From IMG/VR virus record IMGVR_UViG_3300027861_000003, positions 1 through 55,791 of that record: a DNA stretch of 55,791 nucleotides, one strand, 5' to 3'. The notes under the pieces were generated by a model. The model did not search any database. It had not been told where the DNA came from and saw nothing but the letters and a program-made list of their open reading frames with translations. The translations under genes and the position numbers were made by a program. This document shows, in pieces, positions 8,152-55,791 of this stretch (position 1 is its first letter; every line of letters begins with the position of its first letter). The stretch is from a virus.

Positions 8152-11100
8152 TATCTTACTCCTCTAAATCTTTGCTCTTGAATCACGTCGGCAACTTCTT
8201 TACCATCGATAGTAACGATTGTTTGCATGTTTTGTATATCAGCTCTTAAACCTTTCAGTTCTTCTATCATAGCTTGATCTGATTCTTTAGATATATTATC
8301 TCTATGTCTTGGATTGTTTTTGGTTAACACTTCTTCACCAACAGATAATAACGCTGGTACATTATCGATACCTCGGCTACCAGATGGTGCAGCTTGAACA
8401 ACACCACCCGTTGCGAATTTCTGTGCCTGAATTTGAGCAACTTGACCTAGACCAGTGGCAACAACTCCGGCAGCAGCTAATATACCAATTGGGCCGGGAT
8501 ATTTACTTAGTGCTAGTGTCGCACCAGTGTATGTATTCACAATGGCTTCACCAGTTTTTAAAGCCTTTAGTGCTTTACCTGCTGTTTTACCTTGAATGAT
8601 ACCGGCTTTCATTAGATTGTCGCCAATACCAATTAATTGTTGAGATGTAGTTTGGGCTATTAGTGTTTCTACTTGAGCCTTTGCCTTGGATCTTCTAATA
8701 GATGCATCAGATCTAACTTTTGCGAATTGATCTTGTTTAATCGCATCGATTTCTCTCTGTTTCCTTAACGCTTGTAAATGATTACCTTCGGCTTCTGCTT
8801 CTTTTTGTTGAGCTTGTAACTTAAGAATCTGAATATTATCTAAACGAGTTTGAATTAATTCTAACTCTTGTTCATCAGTCTCTAACTGACTTTCTACTTC
8901 TAATATTACCTGTTCTGCTTCTAAATCACTCACTTGTTGTTTAAGTTCGGCTAATTTTTCATTATGAGCAATTGTATCATCTAATGCTCTTTGGTTTCTC
9001 TTATCCCTAGCTTCTTTTTCTATTCTTTCTTTTTCTACTTCATCTAATTTTAATTCGACATTCCTAGCTGAACTAAAATCTCCGTTATCTATAGCTTCTT
9101 GACGAAGTGATTTTAGTTTCTCTTCTCTTTGTTTGATTAGAACATCTCTAATACCATCTGTACTCTTGTTATTAGCAACCCTATTCAACCTTTCAATTTT
9201 TGATAAAAAAGACTGTTCGGCTTCTAGTAATTTTTCTGCCCTTTTTTCTTTCTCGGATAACTCTTTTTCGTTTTTACTAGATTGTTGTTCTTCCTTTATC
9301 TTTGTTATTTTTTGGTCAATTAATTCCAACTCTTTAATTATATTTGCTCTATTACCGCTTGATGCATTATCAATGGTTGCTTCTAACTCTCTATAAGTCT
9401 TTTGTAATTCATTTATTTTCTGTATCCTAATATCTTCTACTGTAGTTGCTTCTGTGCCTAGCCCCCTAAGTACCAATATCCTTTCCCTAATACTAGCTAA
9501 GTCTTTCAGTGCGGCAGCATCGTTTACAACATTACCCTTCTTTACAGCTTCTGTTAAATCACTTTCAGCTTGTTCGAGTTCTCTTAACTTTTCCCTCTTG
9601 GTATTATCTATATCTATTGCTTTCTGTTTTTCCTCTCGCTCTTTTCTTCTTTCTGTTATATTTTTTGATATCTCTTCTCTTTCATTTTTAATTGTTTCTG
9701 TCAAACTTTCTAGTGATTTCCTAGCGCTATCAGTTAAAAATGGTAATTTACTAAATGATTTAACTGCTATTTCAATAAATGCTAATAATAAAAATTTAGC
9801 GCCTTCTATAACTTCTGTTATTTCTTCCCAATATATTATAACGGCAGCTATTTGGGAACCTAAAATACCAAATCCGGCAACAGCTAATCCTATAGGCCCT
9901 GTTATACCTAACCAAGCCGCTGTCGCTGCTATTGCTAGTGATCCGAATGCAACGGTTAATCCTGATATTGCACCTAAAACAACTTTGATTCCTCTATTGT
10001 TATCCTCTACAAACCTAGTTGTAGCTAGAGCTGTTGTTCTTATAAATTCTAATACTGATCTATAAGCTGGCTCTAATTCCCGACCTAATGTTTTAGATAA
10101 CTCTATTGTTGCATTTTTTGTTAATATCTCAGCAGATTCTAATGATTTGAATTGTTTTCTGGCTTCTTCAATTGCAGCAGATTGATTGGTCATCTCCTCT
10201 TCTGTTAATTTAAAGGCTCTAGCTACGTTTTCTGTGTTTTTAATTAAAGGACCAAGTACCCTATTTACTCTATCAGTTTTTAATCCAAAATCAGAAAGGA
10301 TGGTTGGAATTAGTTCCCCTGCTTTCTTAGCTTTACCTAAACCTTCTGTGAACTTCCTTAAAAGTTCGGTGGGATTAGTTTTAAATAAATTACTTAATTC
10401 TTCTCGTTGAAGACCCGTTAGTTTAATTAACTGTTCTAATGGTGCCCCACCAGATATAATTGCGCCCTCTAGAGCTCTAAATGTTTTACCAATTGCAGTA
10501 CCTGATGCTTCTGCTTTTTCGCCAACACCTGCGATGATTGCACCTAATTTAACTGCGTCCTCTGCCAATAGGTTATATTGGGTAGTTGATTGTGCAATCC
10601 TAGTTGAAACTTCTAAGATCTGACTTTCTGTTGCAGAAAAATTATTTCCAAGTGAAACTATAACCGCAGATAGTCTTCCTATGTTCTCTGGTGCCGTTCC
10701 ACTAACTGCTATTAATTGGGCCAAACTACGAGCTGAGTCTACAGTAAGATCCGTTGTTCTAGTTAGTAGAGCCAATGATTCTGTGAATGCTAATATATTT
10801 TTTGAACCCTCAATTCCTAATTGTCCAGCCGTTTGTGATATATTTAATAGTTCAGATGTTCCAACAGGGATTCTATTGGCGAGTCTATCTATTTCCTTAC
10901 CAAATGATGCTAAGTTCTTACCGGATATATTAGTAACTTTTTCTACGTTAATTAAACCATTCTCAAATGCTTTAAATGCACCTAAAGATTTTACAGCAGC
11001 CGCTGTTAAAATTGCTAATCCTCCGGCAGCGAAAGCACCAGCATTTTTAATTTGATCAATACCGCTTTGTGCCCGTTTGATAGATTGTTCAATCTTCTTA

Positions 11101-13861: not shown

Positions 13862-14340
13862 TATCTACTTAACCTATGTACCGATAGTTGCGTGTTGTGT
13901 CTCTCTTCGTCATCAAGAACACCGTCGCCATCGCTGTCAAAACCAAATGGTATAAGACCTAATTTGTCATTTGCTGAGATTTCTCTTTCTCTCATTTGGA
14001 TATACATAGCACTGTCAGTATCGCCACCGCTTGTTAGCCAGTTTTGCTTTAAAATATATGCAACAGCAAAATCTACTGCTATTTTCTTCAACGGCTCAGC
14101 ATCAACTAAATCAGCTTCGCTTGCTGTAAAATATTTATAAACGCCCGGATCAGCCGGATCTTCTTTGAAAACTCTTTTATTGTTCTTTTGTAACTCAGTT
14201 ACAATTTGGTCTGTGCCATGCTGACATGCTTCTGCGAAGTCTGATTGGCCATTAAAATAAAACCAACTTCCTGCATTATTTCCATCAACATCAACGGTTG
14301 TATATATCTTTGGTAAATCTGCATCTACTATTATAGCCAT
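13861..14340 (-). CDS. head-tail connector candidate
   Basis: Track ORF 13861-14400 trimmed to the ATG at 14340 (MAIIVDAD...), which has an AGGAAAA SD-like upstream. Confidence 0.4.
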   Translation of the reverse strand: MAIIVDADLPKIYTTVDVDGNNAGSWFYFNGQSDFAEACQHGTDQIVTELQKNNKRVFKEDPADPGVYKYFTASEADLVDAEPLKKIAVDFAVAYILKQNWLTSGGDTDSAMYIQMREREISANDKLGLIPFGFDSDGDGVLDDEERHNTQLSVHRLSR

Positions 14341-26689: not shown

Positions 26690-27220
26690 GGGAAGTTACG
26701 GTGGCGCTTTTCGTGATTTCAGGTACTTAGGTCATTGAAAATTTTTTTGGTGTGTGTGTCCCCGAGAGGATTTACCAGTAGCTTCGTATATCCCCCCCGA
26801 GCTAAGTGCCTGTTATCATTGACTTTTCATGTTGGCCGAGCTCTTGCATATCAAGCTTCATGCCGCTTGTAAGGTACTGTTATTACATAGCATGGCATGG
26901 ATCTTGCATAATATAAAGAACTTACGCATCATAGTAATATCAAGTACTTACAGGCGATATGGGGGTAGCTAAGTGCTTGATATTACATAAAGGGCCTGTT
27001 ATTTGATAGATAAGTAGTAGTTATCTATCAGGCTACAGGGGCTATATAAGGGCCTCTATTGGGCTTCTGAGACGTTCTATGCTGTGTGTGTAGCCTAACA
27101 GGTCACTTATAATGGGGGTAGCTTAGCGGCTCTCTGAGGGGCTTATATAGGACGTTAGTATATAGGTCAATGATTACAGGTACTTATAACCTATGTATGG
27201 TGGCCTATGATCGGTGTTAT
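26690..27220. other. Non-coding, relatively GC-rich field of dispersed degenerate repeats upstream of the late operon (cos/pac or regulatory region candidate)
   Basis: Recurring ATGGGGGTAGCT(A/T)AG (26965, 27112), GGGCCT(C/G)T(T/A)ATT, GTGCCTGTTATC, GGTACTGTTATTAC, GGGGCT(T)ATATA(A)GG; no credible ORF. Confidence 0.5.
27005..27029 (+). promoter_or_regulatory. Conserved cassette palindrome, isolated copy (H7) inside the non-coding field
   Basis: gatagataa-gtagtag-ttatctatc; perfect 9-bp arms; the only copy not followed by an SD and ORF. Confidence 0.75.
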
Positions 27221-27416
27221 TATGGGGCGTCTATTATGGGGCGTCTATTATGGGGCGTCTATTATGGGGCGTCTATTATGGGGCGTCTATTATGGGGCGT
27301 CTATTATGGGGCGTCTAGTATGGGGCGTCTATTATGGGGCGTCTATTATGGGGCGTCTATTATGGGGCGTCTATTATGGGGCGTCTATTATGGGGCGTCT
27401 ATTATGGGGCGTCTAT
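27221..27416. repeat. Tandem array: 14 head-to-tail copies of the 14-bp unit TATGGGGCGTCTAT
   Basis: Units start at 27221+14k (k=0..13); only one substitution (T>G at 27318). Confidence 0.95.
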
Positions 27417-27420
27417 TACC

Positions 27421-27447
27421 ATAAAAAAGACCTCAAAAAGAGGCCCT
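27421..27447 (-). terminator. Rho-independent terminator for the minus-strand AT-rich island
   Basis: Minus strand: GGCCTC-TTTTT-GAGGTC followed by TTTTTTAT, 27 nt after the stop at 27474. Confidence 0.65.
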
Positions 27448-27473
27448 AATTATTCCTTAAATTTTAATTTAGT

Positions 27474-32145: not shown

Positions 32146-32907
32146 ATGAAATATGAGCTAACATCAGAAAGTATAAAATTATTTGGTCGAACATTATATC
32201 GAATCAGATCTCTAAAGAAATTTATGAATGTTGAGATAGGTGACTTAGGTGGATTTATTGAAAAGGTTGAAAATCTAAGTCAGAGTGGTTTATCATGGGT
32301 TTATGGGAACGCACGGGTTTCTGGGAACGCACGGGTTTCTGGGAACGCACAGGTTTATGAGGACGCATATGTTTCTGGGAACGCACAGGTTTCTGGGAAC
32401 GCACAGGTTTATGAGGACGCATATGTTTCTGGGAACGCACAGGTTTCTGGGAACGCACGGGTTTCTGGGAACGCACAGGTTTATGAGGACGCATATGTTT
32501 CTGGGAACGCACAGGTTTATGAGGACGCATATGTTTCTGGGAACGCACAGGTTTATGGGAACGCATGGGTTTATGGGAACGCACGGGTTTCTGGGAACGC
32601 ACGGGTTTCTGGGAACGCACAGGTTTATGAGGACGCATATGTTTCTGGGAACGCATGGGTTTATGGGAACGCACGGGTTTCTGGGGATGCACGGATAGAA
32701 AAACAATCACAATTCATTACTATAACCAATCTCCAGTACAACATAACATTCACGAAAAACCACATCCAGATTGGTTGTCAAATGCTTACAAAGCAACAAT
32801 GGCTACAAGTAGATAAAGTTACAGCAATAGAAATGGGTCTATATCCAGAAAACTATGACACATTCATGTCACTAATAAAAACACTATCGGGAGTAACAAG
32901 TGAATAA
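32146..32907 (+). CDS. hexapeptide-repeat (beta-helix type) protein, paralog 1
   Basis: 253 aa; N-term MKYELT...LYRIR...GDLGGFIEKVENLSQSGLSWV, then about 22 hexads of GNA(Q/R/W)V(S/Y) or EDAYVS. Confidence 0.75.
   Translation: MKYELTSESIKLFGRTLYRIRSLKKFMNVEIGDLGGFIEKVENLSQSGLSWVYGNARVSGNARVSGNAQVYEDAYVSGNAQVSGNAQVYEDAYVSGNAQVSGNARVSGNAQVYEDAYVSGNAQVYEDAYVSGNAQVYGNAWVYGNARVSGNARVSGNAQVYEDAYVSGNAWVYGNARVSGDARIEKQSQFITITNLQYNITFTKNHIQIGCQMLTKQQWLQVDKVTAIEMGLYPENYDTFMSLIKTLSGVTSE
32290..32690. repeat. 18-bp tandem coding repeat (gggaacgcacrggtttmt and variants)
   Basis: Near-perfect DNA-level periodicity; all six frames stay open across it. Confidence 0.9.
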
Positions 32908-33253
32908 TGCAGACATTACACAAAGGGCCTACCAAATGAATTACGAAATGGAAGACCAACCAAGCCACACAGATCCCGAATCGTTGTTGATCGAGGCTGA
33001 GACTGCTAGGTTGGCTGGGGAGGATTTTGAGGGATATCCGCTCAGAAGCTCTGACAGCGGTTTTAAGACACCTTGTAGTGCTAGGGAGGTAGTGACAGCC
33101 ATGTGCCGCCGAAATGCCATTAGAGAGGAAGATAGGCAGCTTAGCGGAGATGTTGGTAAGAAGGAAGAGCTGCGATGGAAGCGCAAGGTAAGGCGTAGAG
33201 CCGAGGTTGTTGGAGAGGAAGTTCCGCGTAAGTTGTGGAGATTTAATAATTAA
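32900..33253 (+). CDS. hypothetical acidic/basic protein in a GC-rich segment between the paralogs
   Basis: 117 aa; GTG start overlapping the upstream stop, stop overlapping the next start (TAATG); visibly higher GC than its surroundings. Confidence 0.45.
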   Translation: MNNADITQRAYQMNYEMEDQPSHTDPESLLIEAETARLAGEDFEGYPLRSSDSGFKTPCSAREVVTAMCRRNAIREEDRQLSGDVGKKEELRWKRKVRRRAEVVGEEVPRKLWRFNN

Positions 33254-33264
33254 TGGAGGGGTTT

Positions 33265-33978
33265 ATGAAATATGAATTGACTAATGAAAAGAAAGTTTTT
33301 TGTGGAAAAGAATTGTATAGAATCAGGTGTGTCCGTAGTTTTGGGAATATCAAGTTAGGTGACTTAGGTGGATTTATTGAAAAGGTTGAAAATTTAAGTC
33401 ATAGTGGTTTATCATGGGTTTCTGGGAACGCACAGGTTTCTGGGAACGCACAGGTTTCTGGGAACGCACGGGTTTATGGGACCGCACGGGTTTATGGGAA
33501 CGCACAGGTTTATGGGAACGCACGGGTTTATGGGACCGCACGGGTTTCTGGGAACGCACAGGTTTATGGGAACGCACGGGTTTATGAGGACGCACGGGTT
33601 TCTGGGAACGCACGGGTTTATGGGAACGCACAGGTTTATGGGAACGCACGGGTTTATGAGCACGCATATGTTTCTGGGACCGCACAGGTTTATGGGAACG
33701 CACGGGTTTATGGGAACGCACTGGTTTATGGGACCACAACATTAAAAACATCAGATATAGAAAAAACAACAGATTATATCTCAATAACAACAAATCCTTA
33801 CGACATAACAATCACAACATGTGAAATTAATGTTGGGTGTCAAAATTTCACACCAGATGTGCTATTGAGGGATATAGAATTCTTTACAGATAGTTTTGAT
33901 ATAGAAGTTGTTGATGTTGAATGTATTAAGGGGTTATGTGAGGTATCTTTGGCCGTGTTATTGACTAGGGTAAGTTAA
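33265..33978 (+). CDS. hexapeptide-repeat (beta-helix type) protein, paralog 2
   Basis: Track ORF 33253 trimmed to the ATG at 33265 (MKYELT..., as in paralog 1; GGAGGGG SD); about 18 hexads of G(N/T)A(Q/R)V(S/Y). Confidence 0.75.
   Translation: MKYELTNEKKVFCGKELYRIRCVRSFGNIKLGDLGGFIEKVENLSHSGLSWVSGNAQVSGNAQVSGNARVYGTARVYGNAQVYGNARVYGTARVSGNAQVYGNARVYEDARVSGNARVYGNAQVYGNARVYEHAYVSGTAQVYGNARVYGNALVYGTTTLKTSDIEKTTDYISITTNPYDITITTCEINVGCQNFTPDVLLRDIEFFTDSFDIEVVDVECIKGLCEVSLAVLLTRVS
33412..33735. repeat. 18-bp tandem coding repeat, second array
   Basis: Same unit as 32290-32690. Confidence 0.9.
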
Positions 33979-46552: not shown

Positions 46553-46575
46553 ATAGATAATACTAGGTTATCTAT
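46553..46575 (+). promoter_or_regulatory. Conserved cassette palindrome (copy H8)
   Basis: atagataa-tactagg-ttatctat; AAAGGGG follows, ATG 46592. Confidence 0.8.
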
Positions 46576-47153: not shown

Positions 47154-47381
47154 ATGAGTAAGGTATATGTAGTAGATAATGGCGATATGTGTATTTTTGG
47201 TGTATTTACCACTAAAGAAAAAGCCCAATATGTTTGTGATAAAATGAATTTGGACTATCCAGATAACAACGGATTTAGATTTTATATAGAAGAAAGAGAA
47301 TTAGATGTAGTAAAATCATGGATGGTAAATAAAGAATTGGATAAATTAGGGGTCAAAGTTGTGCCCGATGATAGTTATTAA
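47154..47381 (+). CDS. hypothetical protein
   Basis: Track ORF 47136 trimmed to the ATG at 47154 (MSKVYVVDNG...) with an AGGAG SD. Confidence 0.55.
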   Translation: MSKVYVVDNGDMCIFGVFTTKEKAQYVCDKMNLDYPDNNGFRFYIEERELDVVKSWMVNKELDKLGVKVVPDDSY

Positions 47382-47385
47382 AATT

Positions 47386-47408
47386 ATAGATAAATATACA
47401 TTATCTAT
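47386..47408 (+). promoter_or_regulatory. Conserved cassette palindrome (copy H10)
   Basis: atagataa-atataca-ttatctat; followed by non-coding insert A rather than by an SD and ORF. Confidence 0.8.
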
Positions 47409-47610
47409 CACACATAGTAAGTGTTAGGTATAAGAGGGCCCCGAAGTGGTTTTGGGACATTCAAATGAATTAACGGCGTAACCTGCCTCTAGTAAAAAAC
47501 GATGACCTAGGTCGTAAAGTTGAAAGCACTAAGGGTAGTCATCTCCCTTGCAAAGTAAATGATGAAGGCATAAAAGTGGTTAGGTTAACGAGCTATCGTT
47601 TTTATAAAAT
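47409..47610 (+). ncRNA. Candidate structured non-coding RNA, copy A (paralog of 50221-50360)
   Basis: No ORF; shares GTAACCTRCCTYTASTA and AGTGGTTAGGKTARCGAGCTATCG blocks with copy B; terminal hairpin ACGA-GCTA-TCGT vs GCGA-GCTA-TCGC (compensatory change). Confidence 0.35.
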
Positions 47611-47633
47611 ATAGATAAACATAAGTTATCTAT
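47611..47633 (+). promoter_or_regulatory. Conserved cassette palindrome (copy H11)
   Basis: atagataa-acataag-ttatctat. Confidence 0.8.
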
Positions 47634-47650
47634 CAAGGTAGGGTAAGTAC

Positions 47651-47824
47651 ATGGTTATACAAGTAAGTTTTGATAAAGAAAACAGTGGAATTTATTGCAT
47701 AAAACAAAAGAAAAGCTTTCAGTTATGTCTATGGTTTGTGGCTGTAAGAATTTTTTTCATGCCAGAAAGGACACTACAGCAAGTTATTTATTTAGTAGTT
47801 AAAGAAGATATAGAAAATAGATAA
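47651..47824 (+). pseudogene. 57-aa ORF resembling the decayed N-terminus of a GIY-YIG endonuclease
   Basis: MVIQVSFDKENSGIYCIKQKK...; GIY present, YIG lost in frame but a YVYG string exists in another frame; TAA stop inside the H12 arm. Confidence 0.3.
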
Positions 47825-47839
47825 TTATATATTATCTAT
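47817..47839 (+). promoter_or_regulatory. Conserved cassette palindrome (copy H12)
   Basis: atagataa-ttatata-ttatctat. Confidence 0.8.
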
Positions 47840-47867
47840 CGGGGTCAATTAAATTGGGGGGTTATAA

Positions 47868-48179
47868 ATGAACAATCATTGTGAATGTGGGGGATTTTTG
47901 GGAACGGGAAGTGTTGATGGATATGGTGGTAGATGGTGTAAATGTGTCAATCCCAAACCTACTAATAATGCGACAATCACAACCACAGGTACATATTCAA
48001 CTCGATATATCAAAACGATTGATAAGATGATCCGATCCCCTTCTCCAGATATATCTGGAGGGTGTTTTATTGAAAATGAGGTTATATATTTCAAAAATAA
48101 ACATGGACATACTAGTATGATTATTCGCATAAATGATTATAAAGATTTAATGAAAAATGATAAAAAAAAGGAGTTATAA
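47868..48179 (+). CDS. hypothetical Cys-containing protein
   Basis: 103-aa ORF; GGGGGG SD-like upstream. Confidence 0.55.
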   Translation: MNNHCECGGFLGTGSVDGYGGRWCKCVNPKPTNNATITTTGTYSTRYIKTIDKMIRSPSPDISGGCFIENEVIYFKNKHGHTSMIIRINDYKDLMKNDKKKEL

Positions 48180-48493
48180 TGGATAAAAAACAAAACAATA
48201 ATGATTTGGAAAAACCTATTGATATAATACAAATGTATAAGAATGAATTATTTGCAGCTAATAGAAAAATACTAGAACTTGAGAATAGTCATCAAAAAAT
48301 AATGACAACTGATGTAGAAGAAAAATGTTTAGAAATTTCGGGACACACGCTACTTTATAAGATACAAATGGATATCAATTTGGGGTCACTGATAGAGGTA
48401 CTAACTGTCATCAATAAAAATAATAGTCATATTGAGTTTAGAAAATTTAATGAGGAACCAGAGTATATTTATTTATATTTTGGAAATAGATAA
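48179..48493 (+). CDS. hypothetical protein
   Basis: 104-aa ORF; TAATG coupling upstream; TAA stop inside the H13 arm. Confidence 0.55.
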   Translation: MDKKQNNNDLEKPIDIIQMYKNELFAANRKILELENSHQKIMTTDVEEKCLEISGHTLLYKIQMDINLGSLIEVLTVINKNNSHIEFRKFNEEPEYIYLYFGNR

Positions 48494-48508
48494 CTATATG
48501 TTATCTAT
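48486..48508 (+). promoter_or_regulatory. Conserved cassette palindrome (copy H13)
   Basis: atagataa-ctatatg-ttatctat. Confidence 0.8.
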
Positions 48509-48525
48509 CAAACAGGAATAAGTAT

Positions 48526-48792
48526 ATGAAACTAATAGAAACCGATTATCATTATCTAGAAGATTGGCAATACCAAAGAATCTATATAGATTTTGAAACA
48601 TTAAACATACACAGAAGACAAAACAATAAAGATCAAGACGGTATGATATTCCATACGGAAGATATATTAACACAAAATGATGAAGGTTGGGTATATCTAT
48701 TCAGGGTATATGGAAGTAAAACATTGCTTAGATATCTCAAAAAAAAAGAAAATGACAATGAAAAAAATACTCACACTAACAATTTTGTATAA
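48526..48792 (+). CDS. hypothetical protein
   Basis: 88-aa ORF after hairpin plus CAGGAA. Confidence 0.55.
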   Translation: MKLIETDYHYLEDWQYQRIYIDFETLNIHRRQNNKDQDGMIFHTEDILTQNDEGWVYLFRVYGSKTLLRYLKKKENDNEKNTHTNNFV

Positions 48793-48858
48793 CATACTAT
48801 GGATTCATGGTATAAACACACCATGGTTCATATACTTACTAATCAACTAGGAGAACAA

Positions 48859-48984
48859 ATGAAATACTTCCTATTAGCACTATTCGCAGTAACAATCGCA
48901 CTAAGCTTCGCGGAAAGCTATTTACCAAAGTCTAAGGAATTAGTTCCCGCGTCTAAGATATTACTTAAAACAATGGATTATTAA
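48859..48984 (+). CDS. small signal-peptide or membrane protein (41 aa)
   Basis: Track ORF 48799 trimmed to the ATG at 48859 (MKYFLLALFAVTIALSFA...) with an AGGAG SD. Confidence 0.45.
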   Translation: MKYFLLALFAVTIALSFAESYLPKSKELVPASKILLKTMDY

Positions 48985-48985
48985 T

Positions 48986-49195
48986 ATGAAATCACTAGAC
49001 GAACAAACTGGCGGTAATCACTACAAAGATCTCGCAATACAACCGATAGAATATATTACAAAAAATAACTTGACATTCTCACAAGGAAATGTTATAAAGT
49101 ATGTAACACGCTATAAAAAGAAAAACGGCGCAGAGGATCTAAAGAAGGCCATTCATATGTTACAAATGATGCTAGATTTAGAATATGGAGAATAG
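48986..49195 (+). CDS. DUF3310-family protein
   Basis: 69 aa; GGNHY...IQPIEYI...F..GNVIKYVTRY..K.G.EDL.KA.H pattern typical of DUF3310 phage proteins. Confidence 0.6.
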   Translation: MKSLDEQTGGNHYKDLAIQPIEYITKNNLTFSQGNVIKYVTRYKKKNGAEDLKKAIHMLQMMLDLEYGE

Positions 49196-49279
49196 TATGA
49201 AAACAGCTTTATGCATCTTGGTTAAATGGTGCTTACTAGTTTACCTAATAAGCCAAGTAAAATGGACATGGGGGTTATA

Positions 49280-49480
49280 ATGAGTAGATATGACAGATTA
49301 TTAGTTTGCTTTTATATTGTATGTACACTATGTTTTTTATCGATAGGTGGCGGTATTTATTTCATTAAAAAAACCAGTGATAAGTTCACGTTTTTCCAAA
49401 CAGCACTAGATACAGCTACTTACGAATTCGATACATGTAAAAAACTTTACAAAAAAGGCTTGACTTTACCACGTAGATAG
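49280..49480 (+). CDS. small membrane protein
   Basis: Track ORF 49226 trimmed to the ATG at 49280 (MSRYDRLLVCFYIVCTLCFLSIGGGIYF...). Confidence 0.45.
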   Translation: MSRYDRLLVCFYIVCTLCFLSIGGGIYFIKKTSDKFTFFQTALDTATYEFDTCKKLYKKGLTLPRR

Positions 49481-49488
49481 GGCATAAT
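49460..49488 (+). promoter_or_regulatory. sigma70-like promoter
   Basis: TTGACT, 17-nt spacer, CATAAT; 18 nt upstream of ATG 49506. Confidence 0.5.
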
Positions 49489-49505
49489 TAGTTATAGGAG
49501 AAATC

Positions 49506-49718
49506 ATGAAACATCACCAACATTGCTTAACAACTTATAACGGCCCATGTAACTGCGAGGATCTTGAATCTGTGGTTGTATGTAGCGATTGTCACTTTGA
49601 AGTACAAGAGCTCTCATTTGAAACCGAGGGACTATCTGTATGTACAGGCTGCGGTAATATCGAACAGTCCACTGAGATCTGGACACTAGAGAAATTTGAG
49701 AAGGAGGGTTGCGCATGA
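49506..49718 (+). CDS. hypothetical Cys-rich (zinc-ribbon-like) protein
   Basis: 70 aa; CSDCHF...CTGCGN. Confidence 0.55.
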   Translation: MKHHQHCLTTYNGPCNCEDLESVVVCSDCHFEVQELSFETEGLSVCTGCGNIEQSTEIWTLEKFEKEGCA

Positions 49719-49936
49719 AAATAATAGAGAGAGCTAAAGAAATAGATAAATTAAATCAAGTGGAAGTTCCTTATTTCTGTTGGGTATTATTTGGAGATGC
49801 AGCTAAGAACATTACCATATCAGATTCAAGTCAGATATGTTTAGGTGAAGATTATAAATCTATCGACGAAATTAGGGCAGCATTAGATTGGTATGCCGAT
49901 CAGTTTGGTGGTAAAATTAAATGGAGTAAAAAATGA
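49709..49936 (+). CDS. hypothetical protein
   Basis: 75-aa ORF overlapping its neighbours by 10 and 4 nt. Confidence 0.55.
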   Translation: MRMKIIERAKEIDKLNQVEVPYFCWVLFGDAAKNITISDSSQICLGEDYKSIDEIRAALDWYADQFGGKIKWSKK

Positions 49937-50220
49937 AATTAAGACTAGGTGTAGGAGAAGCGATAATTGGTATAAATAAACCTGATCATAAACCAAATCC
50001 AGAATTGACGTTCCGACAAGGAATAGTAGAAGGTGTGGTAGGGAGAACAATTGAAGGTAGAACACTTACCCCACCTGATTTCACACTAGAAATAGTTGGA
50101 CTAGATGGATTAGTTGTTTTAGAAGAAATAATTAGGAAAGCAAGAGAGGTTCTAGAGCAGGAAGAACAATTTCTAATCACAATGGTTAACATTGAAAATT
50201 TACTAAGTAAATATGAATAA
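49933..50220 (+). CDS. hypothetical protein
   Basis: 95-aa ORF, ATGA overlap upstream. Confidence 0.55.
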   Translation: MKLRLGVGEAIIGINKPDHKPNPELTFRQGIVEGVVGRTIEGRTLTPPDFTLEIVGLDGLVVLEEIIRKAREVLEQEEQFLITMVNIENLLSKYE

Positions 50221-50360
50221 TGTAACACCGGAACTGATAATTCGGAGTTAGTTGCAAAAGGTGTAACCTACCTTTACTATAGGTGTGATAGAACTCAATC
50301 CATCCCCTACTATAGAAAAAGTAAGAGTTCCAGTGGTTAGGGTAGCGAGCTATCGCCATT
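50221..50360 (+). ncRNA. Candidate structured non-coding RNA, copy B (paralog of 47409-47610)
   Basis: No credible ORF (the minus-strand 50186-50410 ORF is low-complexity); conserved blocks at 50263-50279 and 50332-50355 shared with copy A. Confidence 0.35.
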
Positions 50361-50383
50361 ATAGATAATAGTATGTTATCTAT
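50361..50383 (+). promoter_or_regulatory. Conserved cassette palindrome (copy H14)
   Basis: atagataa-tagtatg-ttatctat; GGGAG follows, ATG 50401. Confidence 0.8.
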
Positions 50384-50400
50384 CACAGGGAGATAAGTAT

Positions 50401-50559
50401 ATGAAAACATATAAATTTATAATTAGTACCGGATTCTTAAATTGTGACTATGAAGAAGAAATGGAATTTGAAGATGACGTTACAGATGAAGAATTGACAA
50501 ACACTTTACGAGATTTTTTGTATGAAAATATAGATGTTAGATATGAACAAGTAAAATAG
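50401..50559 (+). CDS. small acidic protein (52 aa, below the ORF-track cutoff)
   Basis: Hand translation MKTYKFIISTGFLNCDYEEEMEFEDDVTDEELTNTLRDFLYENIDVRYEQVK; TAG stop inside the H15 arm. Confidence 0.5.
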   Translation: MKTYKFIISTGFLNCDYEEEMEFEDDVTDEELTNTLRDFLYENIDVRYEQVK

Positions 50560-50578
50560 ATAATCATAAATTATCTAT
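50556..50578 (+). promoter_or_regulatory. Conserved cassette palindrome (copy H15)
   Basis: atagataa-tcataaa-ttatctat. Confidence 0.8.
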
Positions 50579-50957: not shown

Positions 50958-50980
50958 ATAGATAACTCAGTCTTATCTAT
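50958..50980 (+). promoter_or_regulatory. Conserved cassette palindrome (copy H16)
   Basis: atagataa-ctcagtc-ttatctat; AAAGGAG follows. Confidence 0.8.
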
Positions 50981-54897: not shown

Positions 54898-55438
54898 GAA
54901 AGCGGAGGGGTTTGATGAGTTTTTAACTAACAATATCCAAGCATTTACAGATGGTGAGTTGTTTGAAGCGAATGCTGTTAGGCAAATAATATTGTTTGTT
55001 TATACCCAATTAACCGAAAAGCACGATACGGAAATAGGGAAGTTAAGAGATGATATTGTTTCAATCAAAGCTGTTAATAGAAATGATATGGAAGAGCTAG
55101 ATTTTTGGAACAAACAGGAATTAGAAGGGCTGCACAAGCAATGGAGAGAGGATCTAAAGGACAAGTTAAGATTTAATAAATTGCTAGACGAAAAACTCCA
55201 AGCAACCCAAGCCAAGCTAAAATCTTGTGAGATTGAAAGGGATGAGGCTGTTAAGTTAAGTGGATTAAGAAAAGATATATGTTCTCGATTATCTAAAGAG
55301 AAACTTAAAGAAACTGTGAAGCGCCACGCCCTTGAGGAAATTGCTAAGCAGGGGTTACGGCAAATGAGAACAGGGGGCAATTTCCCCTTTGCTATATGCG
55401 AGGAATATTTAAAGAAAATAGACGAACTAATGAAATAG
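54887..55438 (+). CDS. hypothetical coiled-coil protein
   Basis: 183 aa; TAG stop 55436-55438 inside the H17 arm. Confidence 0.55.
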   Translation: MSDKKAEGFDEFLTNNIQAFTDGELFEANAVRQIILFVYTQLTEKHDTEIGKLRDDIVSIKAVNRNDMEELDFWNKQELEGLHKQWREDLKDKLRFNKLLDEKLQATQAKLKSCEIERDEAVKLSGLRKDICSRLSKEKLKETVKRHALEEIAKQGLRQMRTGGNFPFAICEEYLKKIDELMK

Positions 55439-55457
55439 ATAATAACAAGTTATCTAT
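55435..55457 (+). promoter_or_regulatory. Conserved cassette palindrome (copy H17)
   Basis: atagataa-taacaag-ttatctat; TGAGG follows, ATG 55474. Confidence 0.8.
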
Positions 55458-55473: not shown

Positions 55474-55674
55474 ATGGAAAATTATTATATGGACTTGAAA
55501 TATCATTTATGTGATGGAACTTACTATCACTTAGAAGGTTCTGTAGAAGGGACTGTAGATTTTTACATAAAAGATAATGAAGATGTAATACTAAGCCATC
55601 AAGCTATATTGAAAGATGATATTGAAAATTTATTAGGAATGTTTAAAAAAATGAATGAATATTTAGAAGAGTGA
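55474..55674 (+). CDS. hypothetical acidic protein
   Basis: 66-aa ORF; TGA stop abuts the H1/H18 hairpin. Confidence 0.55.
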   Translation: MENYYMDLKYHLCDGTYYHLEGSVEGTVDFYIKDNEDVILSHQAILKDDIENLLGMFKKMNEYLEE

Positions 55675-55791
55675 TAGATAACCCTAACTTATCTATCAAA
55701 GGGAGTTAACACAATGAGTTGGAATCATGAAAAAAGATTATTAAATTGTCCATTTTGCGGGACTAAATCTGAAATCAATCACGAATATAGG
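55665..55791. repeat. Second copy of the window-end duplication (includes a duplicate of hairpin H1 at 55673-55697 and the first 78 nt of gene 50-283)
   Basis: Identical to 1-127. Confidence 0.95.

Follow-up and report, generated by a model that had tools for sequence, protein, structure and literature searches.

A pseudoknotted RNA element, very probably of a new family, in two copies in an uncultivated phage genome

Compact phage genomes seldom retain 50 to 200 nt of noncoding DNA without reason. The window analyzed here, a stretch of 55,791 nt (positions 1 to 55,791 of IMG/VR virus record IMGVR_UViG_3300027861_000003), contains two such stretches 2.8 kb apart, at 47409-47610 (copy A) and 50221-50360 (copy B), which raises the question of whether both encode the same RNA and what that RNA might do. 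An initial annotation had placed copy A in a cassette slot between two palindromes and had noted two sequence blocks shared with copy B around a variable middle. Exact palindromes do flank copy A (47386-47408 and 47611-47633), no ORF of at least 20 aa was detected within it on either strand, and "cassette slot" describes its placement accurately. The second block, AGTGGTTAGGKTARCGAGCTATCG, was found only at 47575-47598 and 50332-50355, even when three mismatches were allowed (0.00 occurrences expected), and the first, GTAACCTRCCTYTASTA, was matched exactly only at 47478 and 50263; the stretch between the blocks measured 90 nt in copy A and 62 nt in copy B. Copy B lies between the stop codon of the ORF at 49933-50220 and a palindrome at 50361-50383. 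The ORFs downstream of the two copies encode 57 aa and 52 aa (DUF7167). A minus-strand ORF of 74 aa that runs across copy B is not among the genes called in L024, an identical contig (L numbers are our handles for the recovered loci). The features of both copies are as follows.

Copy A
47386-47408, plus strand: exact palindrome ATAGATAA-N7-TTATCTAT upstream of copy A; context, outside the RNA family
47409-47474, plus strand: nonconserved 5′ leader with a local hairpin at 47440-47456 (CCCGAA/UUUGGG); no counterpart found in other members, no ORF
47475-47600, plus strand: family module
47475-47487, plus strand: P1 hairpin, GGC (47475-47477) with GCC (47485-47487), loop GUAACCU (47478-47484)
47488-47574, plus strand: variable insert (P2 region) of 87 nt, the fold of which is a prediction only
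47575-47586, plus strand: block AGU-GGUUA-GGUU, single-stranded and pseudoknot strand; GGUUA (47578-47582) pairs with UAACC (47479-47483)
47587-47600, plus strand: P3 hairpin, AACGA (47587-47591) with UCGUU (47596-47600), tetraloop GCUA (47592-47595)
47601-47610, plus strand: U-rich tail (UUUAUAAAAU) before palindrome H11; U is enriched after P3 family-wide
47611-47633, plus strand: exact palindrome downstream of copy A, followed by a Shine-Dalgarno (SD) sequence and the ORF 47651-47824

Copy B
50222-50258, plus strand: accessory 5′ domain GUAACACCGGAACUGAUAAUUCGGAGUUAGUUGCAAA containing the hairpin 50228-50245; nearly letter-for-letter in L020, L026 and L183
50257-50356, plus strand: family module
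50257-50275, plus strand: P1 hairpin, AAAGGU (50257-50262) with ACCUUU (50270-50275), loop GUAACCU (50263-50269)
50276-50331, plus strand: variable insert (P2 region) of 56 nt
50332-50343, plus strand: block AGU-GGUUA-GGGU; GGUUA (50335-50339) pairs with UAACC (50264-50268)
50345-50356, plus strand: P3 hairpin, GCGA (50345-50348) with UCGC (50353-50356), tetraloop GCUA (50349-50352)
50361-50383, plus strand: palindrome downstream of copy B, followed by an SD sequence and the ORF 50401-50559 (DUF7167)

The short hairpins that had been pointed out near the 5′ end of each copy (47440-47456 and 50228-50245) both exist, but no homology was found between them and neither belongs to the family core. 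The copy B hairpin domain was common only to L020, L026 and L183, and no counterpart was found for the copy A hairpin. In L026, the hairpin carries a compensatory C-G to U-A change, and the domain begins just past a TTGACA-17-TATTAT promoter. Other family members lack the palindromes of this locus. A scan of IMG/VR for ATAGATAA-N7-TTATCTATC returned mostly single chance matches and no comparable cluster, and the palindrome was dropped as a handle for finding relatives.

Fold and covariation of the core

The core consists of a hairpin (P1), an H-type pseudoknot and a second hairpin (P3), with an optional and highly variable insert in the third pseudoknot loop. P1 is a covarying stem of 3 to 6 bp that closes an essentially invariant 7-nt loop, GUAACCU. 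Its pairs are kept in 35, 37 and 32 of 38 members, and the loop-closing pair, C-G in copy A versus U-A in copy B, is C-G in 25 members, U-A in 9 and A-U in 1. The first block thus proved to be conserved in its loop, while the letters flanking the loop form the covarying stem and do not continue a single conserved stretch, as had been assumed. The UAACC of this loop pairs with the GGUUA inside the downstream AGUGGUUAGGNU block, and all five pairs are intact in 38 of 38 members. Compensated variants occur as UCACC:GGUGA (twice, in L122 and L183; A-U to C-G) and as UAACA:UGUUA (L158; C-G to A-U). The change on the loop side is a genuine test of the pairing because the scans that yielded these variants constrained only the 3′ block. 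The pairing of the first-block hairpin loop with the start of the second block, the organizing feature of the fold, had escaped the initial annotation.

The terminal hairpin, given there as ACGA-GCTA-TCGT in copy A versus GCGA-GCTA-TCGC in copy B, is a real helix judging by family-wide covariation. P3 is a covarying 5-bp stem with a GCUA tetraloop; four of its pairs are present in 37 of 37 members and the fifth in 34 of 37, all with compensatory changes, and the GCUA loop is kept in 36 of 37. L183 has a long stem without GCUA in place of P3. The insert between P1 and the pseudoknot strand ranges from about 1 to 110 nt (4 to 113 nt from the P1 loop to the AGUGG block), minimal forms measure about 45 nt, and about 14 conserved nucleotides of the pseudoknot core are unpaired.

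When 28 sequences were tested, 97.4% of the cells were paired and all 8 variable pairs had changed on both sides. None of 500 shuffles attained the observed values, and pairing fell to 19 to 59% when the pairing partner was slid along the sequence. Unguided joint folding of 11 minimal forms with RNAalifold predicted both the UAACC:GGUUA helix and P3. Single-sequence folding energies on the plus strand were no better than those of shuffled sequences (z = 0.20 and -0.69); the support for the structure is therefore comparative and not thermodynamic. A z value of -2.6 for the minus strand of copy B was set aside because sense-strand G-U pairs and gene orientation favor the plus strand. That the blocks might be remnants of a degraded protein-coding gene was also rejected: copy A lacks an ORF, no reading frame is conserved, and the substitutions fall on paired positions, where they are compensatory, and not on third codon positions.

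Stem covariation would also be expected for single-stranded DNA hairpins, and the motif is frequent in replication modules and present once or twice per genome. A DNA-level signal, such as a binding site for a protein or a lagging-strand template hairpin for single-strand initiation or origin function, would be consistent with these observations. However, G-U (G-T) pairs are frequent only on the sense strand (the fifth P3 pair is G-U in 12 members versus A-C in 2), the motif is co-oriented with the flanking genes in 36 of 38 members, some copies have a promoter directly upstream, and others lie in a tail module or beside a tRNA. H-type pseudoknot geometry with a one-nucleotide loop is typical of A-form RNA. 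We consider a DNA-level role highly improbable.

Members and their genomic context

Homologs in which the substitutions keep the proposed pairs, as had been predicted for a structured RNA family, were recovered at 38 to 40 places on at least 35 distinct uncultivated phage-like contigs. We are confident that the two noncoding stretches are paralogous copies of a real, new and previously undescribed structured RNA family. The contigs span 31 to 61% G+C and their proteins are only 25 to 45% identical to those of this window. About 25 nt of the motif are essentially constant despite this divergence; most members were found via patterns fixing AGTGG..AGG and AGCTAT, so that the constancy of those letters is partly by design. 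A window-wide covariance-model scan with filters off detected exactly two copies (71.7 and 63.8 bits; next best, 10.9 bits). One candidate, L052, was dropped as a false positive (coding region, broken P3), and most matches of a 16-base gapped pattern were likewise due to chance and were removed.

Among 185,579 species genomes, only 3 of 16 matches were true, and all 3 lay on short phage-like contigs; a host element or prophage was rejected on these grounds. Neither megablast of the region nor blastn of a 49-nt consensus gave a match in 50,697 phage records, and exact-string and keyword searches of the literature returned nothing relevant to the motif. Nothing cultured is more than 29% identical to the L031 DNA polymerase or to the terminase of this window. 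Among the genomes searched, the motif is apparently restricted to phages. With no Rfam family, no cultured-phage match and no literature trace, it is a candidate new functional RNA class, with minimal natural versions of only about 45 to 50 nt, and whatever its mechanism, it marks a point of regulation or processing that a broad range of uncultivated and mainly aquatic phages share in their early and replication operons.

The motif follows stop codons or sigma-70-like promoters and is itself followed by a ribosome-binding site, a terminator or, in one contig, tRNA-Met. Near-consensus sigma-70 promoters lie 0 to 60 nt upstream in L026, L027, L034, L041 and L186; in L034 and L186 the motif stands at the extreme 5′ end of predicted primary transcripts, and the predicted start in L034 falls at P1. 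Downstream genes comprise small ORFs of unknown function, DNA polymerase A, primase-helicase, the small subunit of ribonucleotide reductase (RNR), a ParB-methylase, a Tad2-like gene, a tail-module gene and tRNA-Met. All-against-all clustering of ORFs up to about 10 kb around the copies revealed no protein family shared by most loci. Tandem copies occur in L196 (back to back), L080 (about 230 nt apart) and L059, a Tad2-like anti-Thoeris gene follows one of the tandem pairs, and the window itself has two copies. After P3, U accounts for a mean of 3.76 of 8 nt versus 2.28 expected, with tracts of U7 to U9 in L222 and L158 and of U4 to U6 in many others; GC-rich members have no such tract. The P3 hairpins of the window were not picked up by a consensus scan for intrinsic terminators. 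In L030, a strong intrinsic terminator begins 2 nt after P3 in a 3′ untranslated region (UTR).

Several modes of action can be weighed against this context. Copies often separate a gene whose product is required in bulk from genes whose products are required in small quantities: a DUF669 SSB-like gene, the motif and DNA polymerase A follow one another in L020, L031, L035 and L088, and in L029/L205 the motif separates a large ORF by the tail module from a small ORF and the tape measure gene. Such positions, together with the L030 copy in a 3′ UTR before a terminator and the L034 and L186 copies at 5′ transcript ends, would suit a putative stability or processing element, the compact pseudoknot of which would block exoribonucleases or RNase E scanning, protect the upstream 3′ end and/or the downstream 5′ end and lead to unequal expression within the operon. 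The tandem copies recall flaviviruses, which carry tandem exonuclease-resistant RNAs. Ordinary stable bacterial hairpins do this job without sequence conservation, however, and the near-invariant loops imply a specific interaction. We rate this explanation as unlikely.

A somewhat lower probability is assigned to a put-like processive antiterminator or a translational enhancer that would act in cis on RNA polymerase or the ribosome. A universal and highly conserved partner of this kind would explain the conservation across diverse hosts, and copies follow early-type promoters and precede terminator-like hairpins (in L030, and the palindromes here). The present genome has two copies, as HK022 has putL and putR, and the motif precedes a tRNA as well as mRNAs, which fits an action at the level of transcription. 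The likeness to put is one of analogy only, however: when the complete HK022 genome was searched with the covariance model and filters off, the best match scored 12.6 bits (E 0.72) and lay at 13881-13957, outside the early regions and not at the put sites, and homology was rejected. Many copies are located mid-operon, back-to-back tandems would be unexpected, and a translational enhancer misfits copies that precede a tRNA or a terminator.

Copy A fills the whole slot between its palindromes without an ORF, and in L059 the motif twice ends 3 nt before the 5′ end of tRNA-Met, which adjoins the motif and is not contained in it, so that RNase P cleavage would release the motif. These arrangements, the L034 promoter with its predicted start at P1 and the tandem pair before the Tad2-like anti-Thoeris gene might indicate a stable small RNA that is released by termination at P3 or by RNase P and acts in trans, for instance as a sponge or decoy that captures a host protein, a defense effector or a signaling nucleotide. 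In most members, however, the motif is part of an mRNA, because the next start codon is 13 to 40 nt away and leaves no space for a promoter, and the conserved letters are engaged in internal pairing and do not form a free seed. A trans-acting RNA is considered improbable.

Comparison with known RNA classes and favored mechanism

The motif was compared with the 4,227 models of Rfam 15 at the gathering threshold and, over 47300-50500, at E values up to 10. The models include pistol, hatchet, twister, hammerhead, HDV-like, preQ1, SAM-II/V, fluoride and guanidine-III as well as c-di-GMP, glnA, manA, wcaG, PhotoRC, IMES and RAGATH motifs. There was no match in the whole window at gathering, and only two weak, unrelated matches at E values up to 10 over 47300-50500. 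On 15 motif-bearing loci, the only Rfam matches were two tRNAs that lay outside the motif, and ARAGORN called neither a tRNA nor a tmRNA gene anywhere in the window. The earlier remark that the element was not recognized as any named riboswitch or small RNA thus agrees with both programs. The AGUGGUUAGG block resembles a D-loop by eye only. Mappings onto tRNA-like, HDV-like and pistol-like folds by hand were rejected on topology; pistol was further dismissed for its lack of an Rfam match and, by inspection, of a conserved pairing between the nucleotides 5′ of GGUUA and the tail after P3. Type III toxin-antitoxin RNAs (ToxI, CptI, TenpI), which form tandem direct repeats immediately before a ToxN/AbiQ-type endoribonuclease gene, were rejected since each copy in the window stands singly, at a distance of 2.8 kb from the other, and no toxin-like family was found among the downstream genes at other loci.

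Such conservation in a small pseudoknot is usually a marker of a ribozyme or a riboswitch aptamer. That the motif represents an RNA of a new class, catalytic or ligand-sensing, in many unrelated phages, either a small self-cleaving ribozyme or a riboswitch that responds to a signal found in every infected cell, is a serious possibility that we place somewhat below an even chance. A candidate signal would be a nucleotide-pool metabolite or a defense-related signaling nucleotide that times replication and counter-defense genes; a Tad2-like gene lies behind one tandem pair.

The mechanism that we tentatively favor, at odds clearly short of even, is a riboswitch-like attenuator, that is, a self-contained cis-acting leader or punctuation RNA. 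The module would act in cis, as RNA, on its own transcript and would decide the fate of that transcript just upstream of the next cistron. The pseudoknot and the conserved unpaired nucleotides may form a binding pocket for some ligand or host factor that is available universally, and a universal partner is argued for by a core that is kept over the observed range of G+C content and protein divergence. Occupancy of the pocket would set the stability of P3, and P3 with the following U tract, or with a separate terminator as in L030, would control read-through into the downstream genes. The U tracts, the L030 terminator, the start codon located 13 to 26 nt past P3 in 17 of 38 members and the tandem copies, as in tandem riboswitches, all fit an attenuator. 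A conserved, covarying aptamer-like fold is present, and P3 plus a U tract, a possible expression platform, occurs in about half of the members. Against this mechanism, no conserved alternative pairing, neither an antiterminator nor an SD-sequestering helix, was found. A switch helix formed by the 5′ strand of P1 with the 3′ strand of P3 was not maintained in members with covaried stems, and the likeness between the 5′ strands of P1 and P3 likewise vanished in such members. A short P3 of 4 to 5 bp with a conserved loop would be unusual for a plain terminator, GC-rich members are without the U tract, and the single-sequence fold energies are unexceptional. Moreover, the downstream genes are heterogeneous and do not form a coherent regulated set with a metabolite theme that would point to a ligand; such context independence is more typical of ribozymes. 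Ascertainment also counts here, as the retrieval patterns fixed part of the conserved letters.

A new class of small self-cleaving ribozyme is possible and nearly as likely as the attenuator. The pseudoknot core with its conserved nucleotides would then be the active site, and cleavage would part the upstream from the downstream cistron, so that the two differ in stability, or free a tRNA precursor. The core of about 45 nt, the invariant junction and loop nucleotides, the covarying stems and the tolerated insert resemble twister, pistol and hatchet. Copies occur next to promoters, stop codons, ribosome-binding sites, a terminator and a tRNA, and they are not consistently associated with any gene; the G+C span of 31 to 61% fits activity without a host-specific factor, and restriction to phages is shared with many representatives of small ribozymes. 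Since no Rfam ribozyme matched even at E values up to 10 and the fold departs from pistol and HDV-like topology, this explanation requires a new class. The cleavage site cannot be inferred from the sequence, and the back-to-back copies of L196 and the U tracts after P3 are left unexplained.

The closest riboswitch analogs are the preQ1-I, SAM-II/SAM-V, guanidine-III and fluoride aptamers, which are like the motif in a core of about 45 nt, pairing of a loop with a downstream strand, one-nucleotide pseudoknot loops, conserved unpaired nucleotides, location in sense 5′ leaders and occasional tandem occurrence. As in the motif, the HMP-PP (thiS) riboswitch has a terminator-like hairpin within its conserved fold. 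Unlike the motif, the known aptamers lack the extra GCUA hairpin; the motif matches none of them in sequence or model, is restricted to phages and differs from riboswitches in having no coherent regulated genes and no alternative pairing that was found to be conserved. The pistol, twister, hatchet, hammerhead and HDV-like/theta ribozymes are alike in size, invariant junction nucleotides, variable stems and indifferent gene context. Pistol likewise has a pseudoknot between a hairpin loop and a downstream strand, but its closing P2 helix and linker are absent from the motif, and the nested double pseudoknot of HDV-like ribozymes cannot be drawn on the motif sequence. Theta ribozymes also flank phage tRNAs, and the motif adjoins a tRNA in one case.

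Among phage regulatory elements, the promoter-early stem-loops (PeSLs) of T4-type phages, as repeated intergenic stem-loops between small early genes, resemble the ATAGATAA-N7-TTATCTAT palindromes around copy A and not the RNA family. HK022 putL/putR and lambda nut are cis-acting modules, as is proposed for the motif, and likewise consist of two stem-loops, one or two per genome; they stand after early promoters and before terminators and act regardless of the gene, whereas many motif copies lie mid-operon. To our knowledge, no loop-to-strand pseudoknot has been described for put RNAs. The T4/T2 gene 32 leader likewise places an H-type pseudoknot in a phage replication-module leader. This leader and other autoregulatory phage operators serve one gene and one protein in close relatives only, whereas the motif precedes many unrelated genes in very diverse phages.

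Motif copies and their setting in the window

The initial annotation proposed, from the sequence alone, a structured RNA family with two members in the window. The shared 24-nt block AGTGGTTAGGKTARCGAGCTATCG was found only at 47575 and 50332, even with three mismatches allowed, and the other shared block, GTAACCTRCCTYTASTA, had exact matches only at 47478 and 50263. As originally described, copy A is flanked by palindromes, here placed at 47386-47408 and 47611-47633; it contains no ORF of at least 20 aa. Copy B is flanked by the stop codon of ORF 49933-50220 on its 5′ side and by palindrome 50361-50383 on its 3′ side. A 74-aa ORF on the strand opposite copy B is missing from the gene calls of the identical ENA contig and was treated as an artifact. 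ARAGORN returned nothing on the window, and single-sequence folding of the plus strand was no better than shuffled controls for either copy. The motif had not been recognized as a named family, and neither the window nor 15 other loci matched any Rfam 15 family. The observation is real, and its interpretation as a structured RNA family is supported by homologs with paired changes in the stems (counted over 38 members) and by joint folding.

Motif copies and palindromes in the window
47475-47600, plus strand: motif copy A
50257-50356, plus strand: motif copy B
50222-50258: second RNA module, immediately 5′ of copy B
10-32, 293-315, 556-578, 27006-27028, 46553-46575, 47386-47408, 47611-47633: exact palindromes ATAGATAA-N7-TTATCTAT, first seven
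47817-47839, 48486-48508, 50361-50383, 50556-50578, 50958-50980, 55435-55457, 55674-55696: exact palindromes, last seven
Near 843, 1051, 1654 and 47102: degenerate palindrome copies

Bases 1-127 are repeated exactly at 55665-55791 (127 nt), so the window represents a complete genome of 55,664 bp, assembled as a circle. Its G+C content is 35%, and it encodes a tape measure protein, large terminase, primase-helicase, family B DNA polymerase, integrase-like protein, ClpP, ribonucleotide reductase (RNR) and ThyX. Among 50,697 cultured phage records there was no nucleotide match to the window, and the terminase reached at most 29% identity. The palindrome occurs in 14 exact copies versus 0 expected. 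Nearly all copies sit directly 5′ of the Shine-Dalgarno (SD) sequence and start codon of small plus-strand ORFs, which are numerous in the right-hand part of the window; several, together with conserved flanks (ATT...CAA), resemble near-consensus sigma-70 promoters when read on the minus strand (TTGATA-17-TATAAT). Operators, processing sites and antisense promoters are all possible roles for the palindromes.

Three further features were noted. About 15 tandem copies of the 14-nt unit TATTATGGGGCGTC at 27176-27455, between leftward structural and rightward replication genes, resemble iterons; an origin or a binding array is possible. ORFs 32146-32907 (253 aa) and 33253-33978 (241 aa) are paralogs made of 18-nt collagen-like repeats (81% identity over the first 300 nt), with a homolog in L093 (L plus a number denotes a motif-bearing phage-like contig). 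The family B DNA polymerase (40746-43297) is seemingly split: an ORF with an I-HmuI/NUMOD-like homing endonuclease domain lies between a 455-aa exonuclease/N-terminal part and a 225-aa C-terminal part.

Homologs and the pseudoknot fold

A gapped pattern joining both blocks retrieved four IMG/VR contigs, all obvious homologs, and the 3′ block alone, AGTGGTTAGGNTNNNNAGCTAT, retrieved 14 IMG/VR loci, all with GTAACCT upstream. Scanning with AGTGGTTAGGNTNNNNAGCTAT yielded 48 metagenome contigs, of which about half were true, and 16 contigs in 185,579 species genomes; the 3 true ones among the latter were all short or phage-sized and had been binned into MAGs. With a covariance model derived from 28 distinct sequences, divergent additional copies were recovered in L059, L080 and L092. 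Relaxed scans, together with a search for the accessory 5′ domain, contributed L122, L158, L183, L186, L196, L205 and L222. This resulted in 38 instances for pair counting, plus at least one further upstream copy in L196. The instances come from 35 distinct contigs with a G+C content of 31 to 61%, the proteins of which mostly show best identities of 25 to 45% to those of the window. Despite this divergence the motif core is almost letter-perfect, the invariance of AGTGG..AGG and AGCTAT being partly due to the search patterns. The motif is under strong purifying selection.

Motif elements, 5′ to 3′, with pair counts over 38 members
P1: stem of 3-6 bp, variable in sequence, closing the 7-nt loop GUAACCU; three loop-proximal pairs intact in 35/38, 37/38 and 32/38; closing pair C-G 25, U-A 9, A-U 1
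Linker: about 1 to 110 nt
Conserved block: AGU-GGUUA-GG-N-U
P3: 5-bp stem with GCUA cap; four loop-proximal pairs intact in 37/37 each (A-U/U-A/G-C, G-C/C-G/U-A/A-U, C-G/U-A/A-U, A-U/G-C); fifth pair intact in 34/37 (12 G-U versus 2 A-C)

The minimal forms (L029, L051, L059, L030, L033, L122, L186, L205 and L222) measure only about 45 to 50 nt. In the 28-sequence alignment, 97.4% of cells were paired and all eight variable pairs were altered on both sides; none of 500 shuffles reached the observed values, and sliding the 3′ partner by one to three columns lowered pairing to 19 to 59%. A final scan with P3 unconstrained identified the GCUA tetraloop as its truly conserved feature, with a covarying closing pair (A-U; U-A in L186 and L205; G-C in L222). 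L196 carries triloops instead, and L183 has a long stem in place of P3.

The loop sequence UAACC is complementary to GGUUA, and this pairing was invariant in the first 28 sequences. Therefore, two further scans relaxed the 3′ block only and left the loop unconstrained. In the true new members, loop changes matched block changes: L122 combines block AGUGGUGAGG with loop GUCACCU, and L158 combines AGUUGUUAGG with GUAACAC. In L183, retrieved through the 5′ domain, GUCACCU and GGUGA pair again, with different P1 and P3 stems around them; the upstream copy of L196 has GGUUG, a one-sided change from U-A to U-G. Unguided RNAalifold prediction on 11 minimal forms gave exactly the UAACC:GGUUA helix along with P3. 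This helix, together with the covariation-supported P1, defines an unusually well-supported H-type pseudoknot. Two of its loops are single nucleotides (G and U of GUAACCU), and the third holds the variable insert.

L026 and L027, otherwise dissimilar, share a subdomain within the insert between P1 and AGUGG (...CGAGAGUGUAAA.CG.GAUAUCCGU.AGAGCGUUAGGAGA...); thus, in some subfamilies the insert can have a conserved structure of its own. Immediately 5′ of the motif, four contigs (window 50222-50258; L020 6375-6412; L026 8044-8080; L183 9314-9351) contain a second conserved RNA module, GUAACACYGRAACUGAUAAUUCRGAGUUAGUUGCAAA. Its hairpin shows a compensatory C-G/U-A change, its ends GUAAC...GUUGC are able to pair, and in L026 the module begins where transcription from a TTGACA-17-TATTAT promoter is predicted to start.

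Gene context and possible function

The G-U pairs of the motif exist on the sense strand only, and 36 of the 38 instances are co-oriented with neighboring genes; we consider a signal at the DNA level extremely unlikely. Near-consensus sigma-70 promoters lie 0 to 60 nt upstream of the motif in L026, L027, L034, L041 and L186, while elsewhere P1 starts a few nucleotides past the preceding stop codon (e.g., L029, L030 and L051). Very diverse phages carry the motif in their sense transcripts as a self-contained, strand-specific RNA module with a pseudoknot. Since the core stays the same in hosts that differ widely in base composition, we infer a cis-acting module that relies on something universal; that it is a released trans-acting RNA is very unlikely. 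A module binding RNA polymerase or the ribosome, by analogy to the put RNAs, to which the motif is not homologous, seems distinctly unlikely.

An SD sequence and start codon follow P3 within 13 to 26 nt in 17 of 38 instances. U residues are enriched after P3 (3.76 of 8 nt versus 2.28 expected), with the longest tracts in L158 (U9) and L222 (U7), and in L030 a strong intrinsic terminator begins two bases past P3. Tandem copies are found in L196 (back to back), L080 (spaced by about 230 nt) and the window (spaced by 2.8 kb). The U tracts, the L030 terminator, the leader position and the tandem copies count in favor of a riboswitch-like attenuator, a possible function that we put forward tentatively. 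Here, the pseudoknot pocket would control P3 stability, which in turn would control read-through. Against the attenuator stand the lack of a conserved alternative helix among those sought and of a coherent regulon. A stability or punctuation element is unlikely.

The surrounding genes mostly function in replication and nucleotide metabolism. Several phages carry a DUF669 SSB-like gene upstream of the motif and DNA polymerase A 130 to 370 nt downstream; L026 has the RNR small subunit directly 3′, and other neighbors are primase-helicase, ParB-methylase and dATP/dGTP diphosphohydrolase. In L029 and L205 the motif lies in the tail module, and in L059 a tRNA-Met gene follows three bases after each of two copies. 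No protein family common to most motif loci was found. A new self-cleaving ribozyme would account no less well than the attenuator for this indifference to context and for the pattern of conservation; we regard it as a doubtful, yet serious, candidate.

Individual loci showed additional features. The L026 RNR small subunit (8226-10160, 644 aa) matches its family model in two separate stretches and seems to be interrupted by a large insertion, which may be an intein or homing endonuclease. The gene 5′ of the motif in L076 encodes a dATP/dGTP diphosphohydrolase-type protein (Pfam dGTP_diPhyd_N, E = 1e-28); such enzymes are linked to phages with a replaced DNA base. The L080 copies (199-294 and 432-533) share one leader of about 400 nt before an ORF starting at 579, a Tad2-like (Thoeris anti-defense 2) gene (Pfam E = 2.7e-19). 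On the minus strand of L059 (1-1259), a cassette of about 150 nt, comprising the motif 3′ half, tRNA-Met, a GGCCCC...GGGGCC hairpin and an SD sequence, is duplicated about 720 nt apart before two different ORFs, and the P1 parts differ between the two motif copies.

Relation to known RNA families

The motif is not a tRNA, a type III antitoxin array or a gene remnant, and literature searches for its conserved strings and relevant keywords returned nothing. By design it is nearest to small H-type pseudoknot aptamers and small ribozymes, but it matches no sequence or structure definition of either, and it constitutes a phage RNA family that is fairly widespread and has not been described before.
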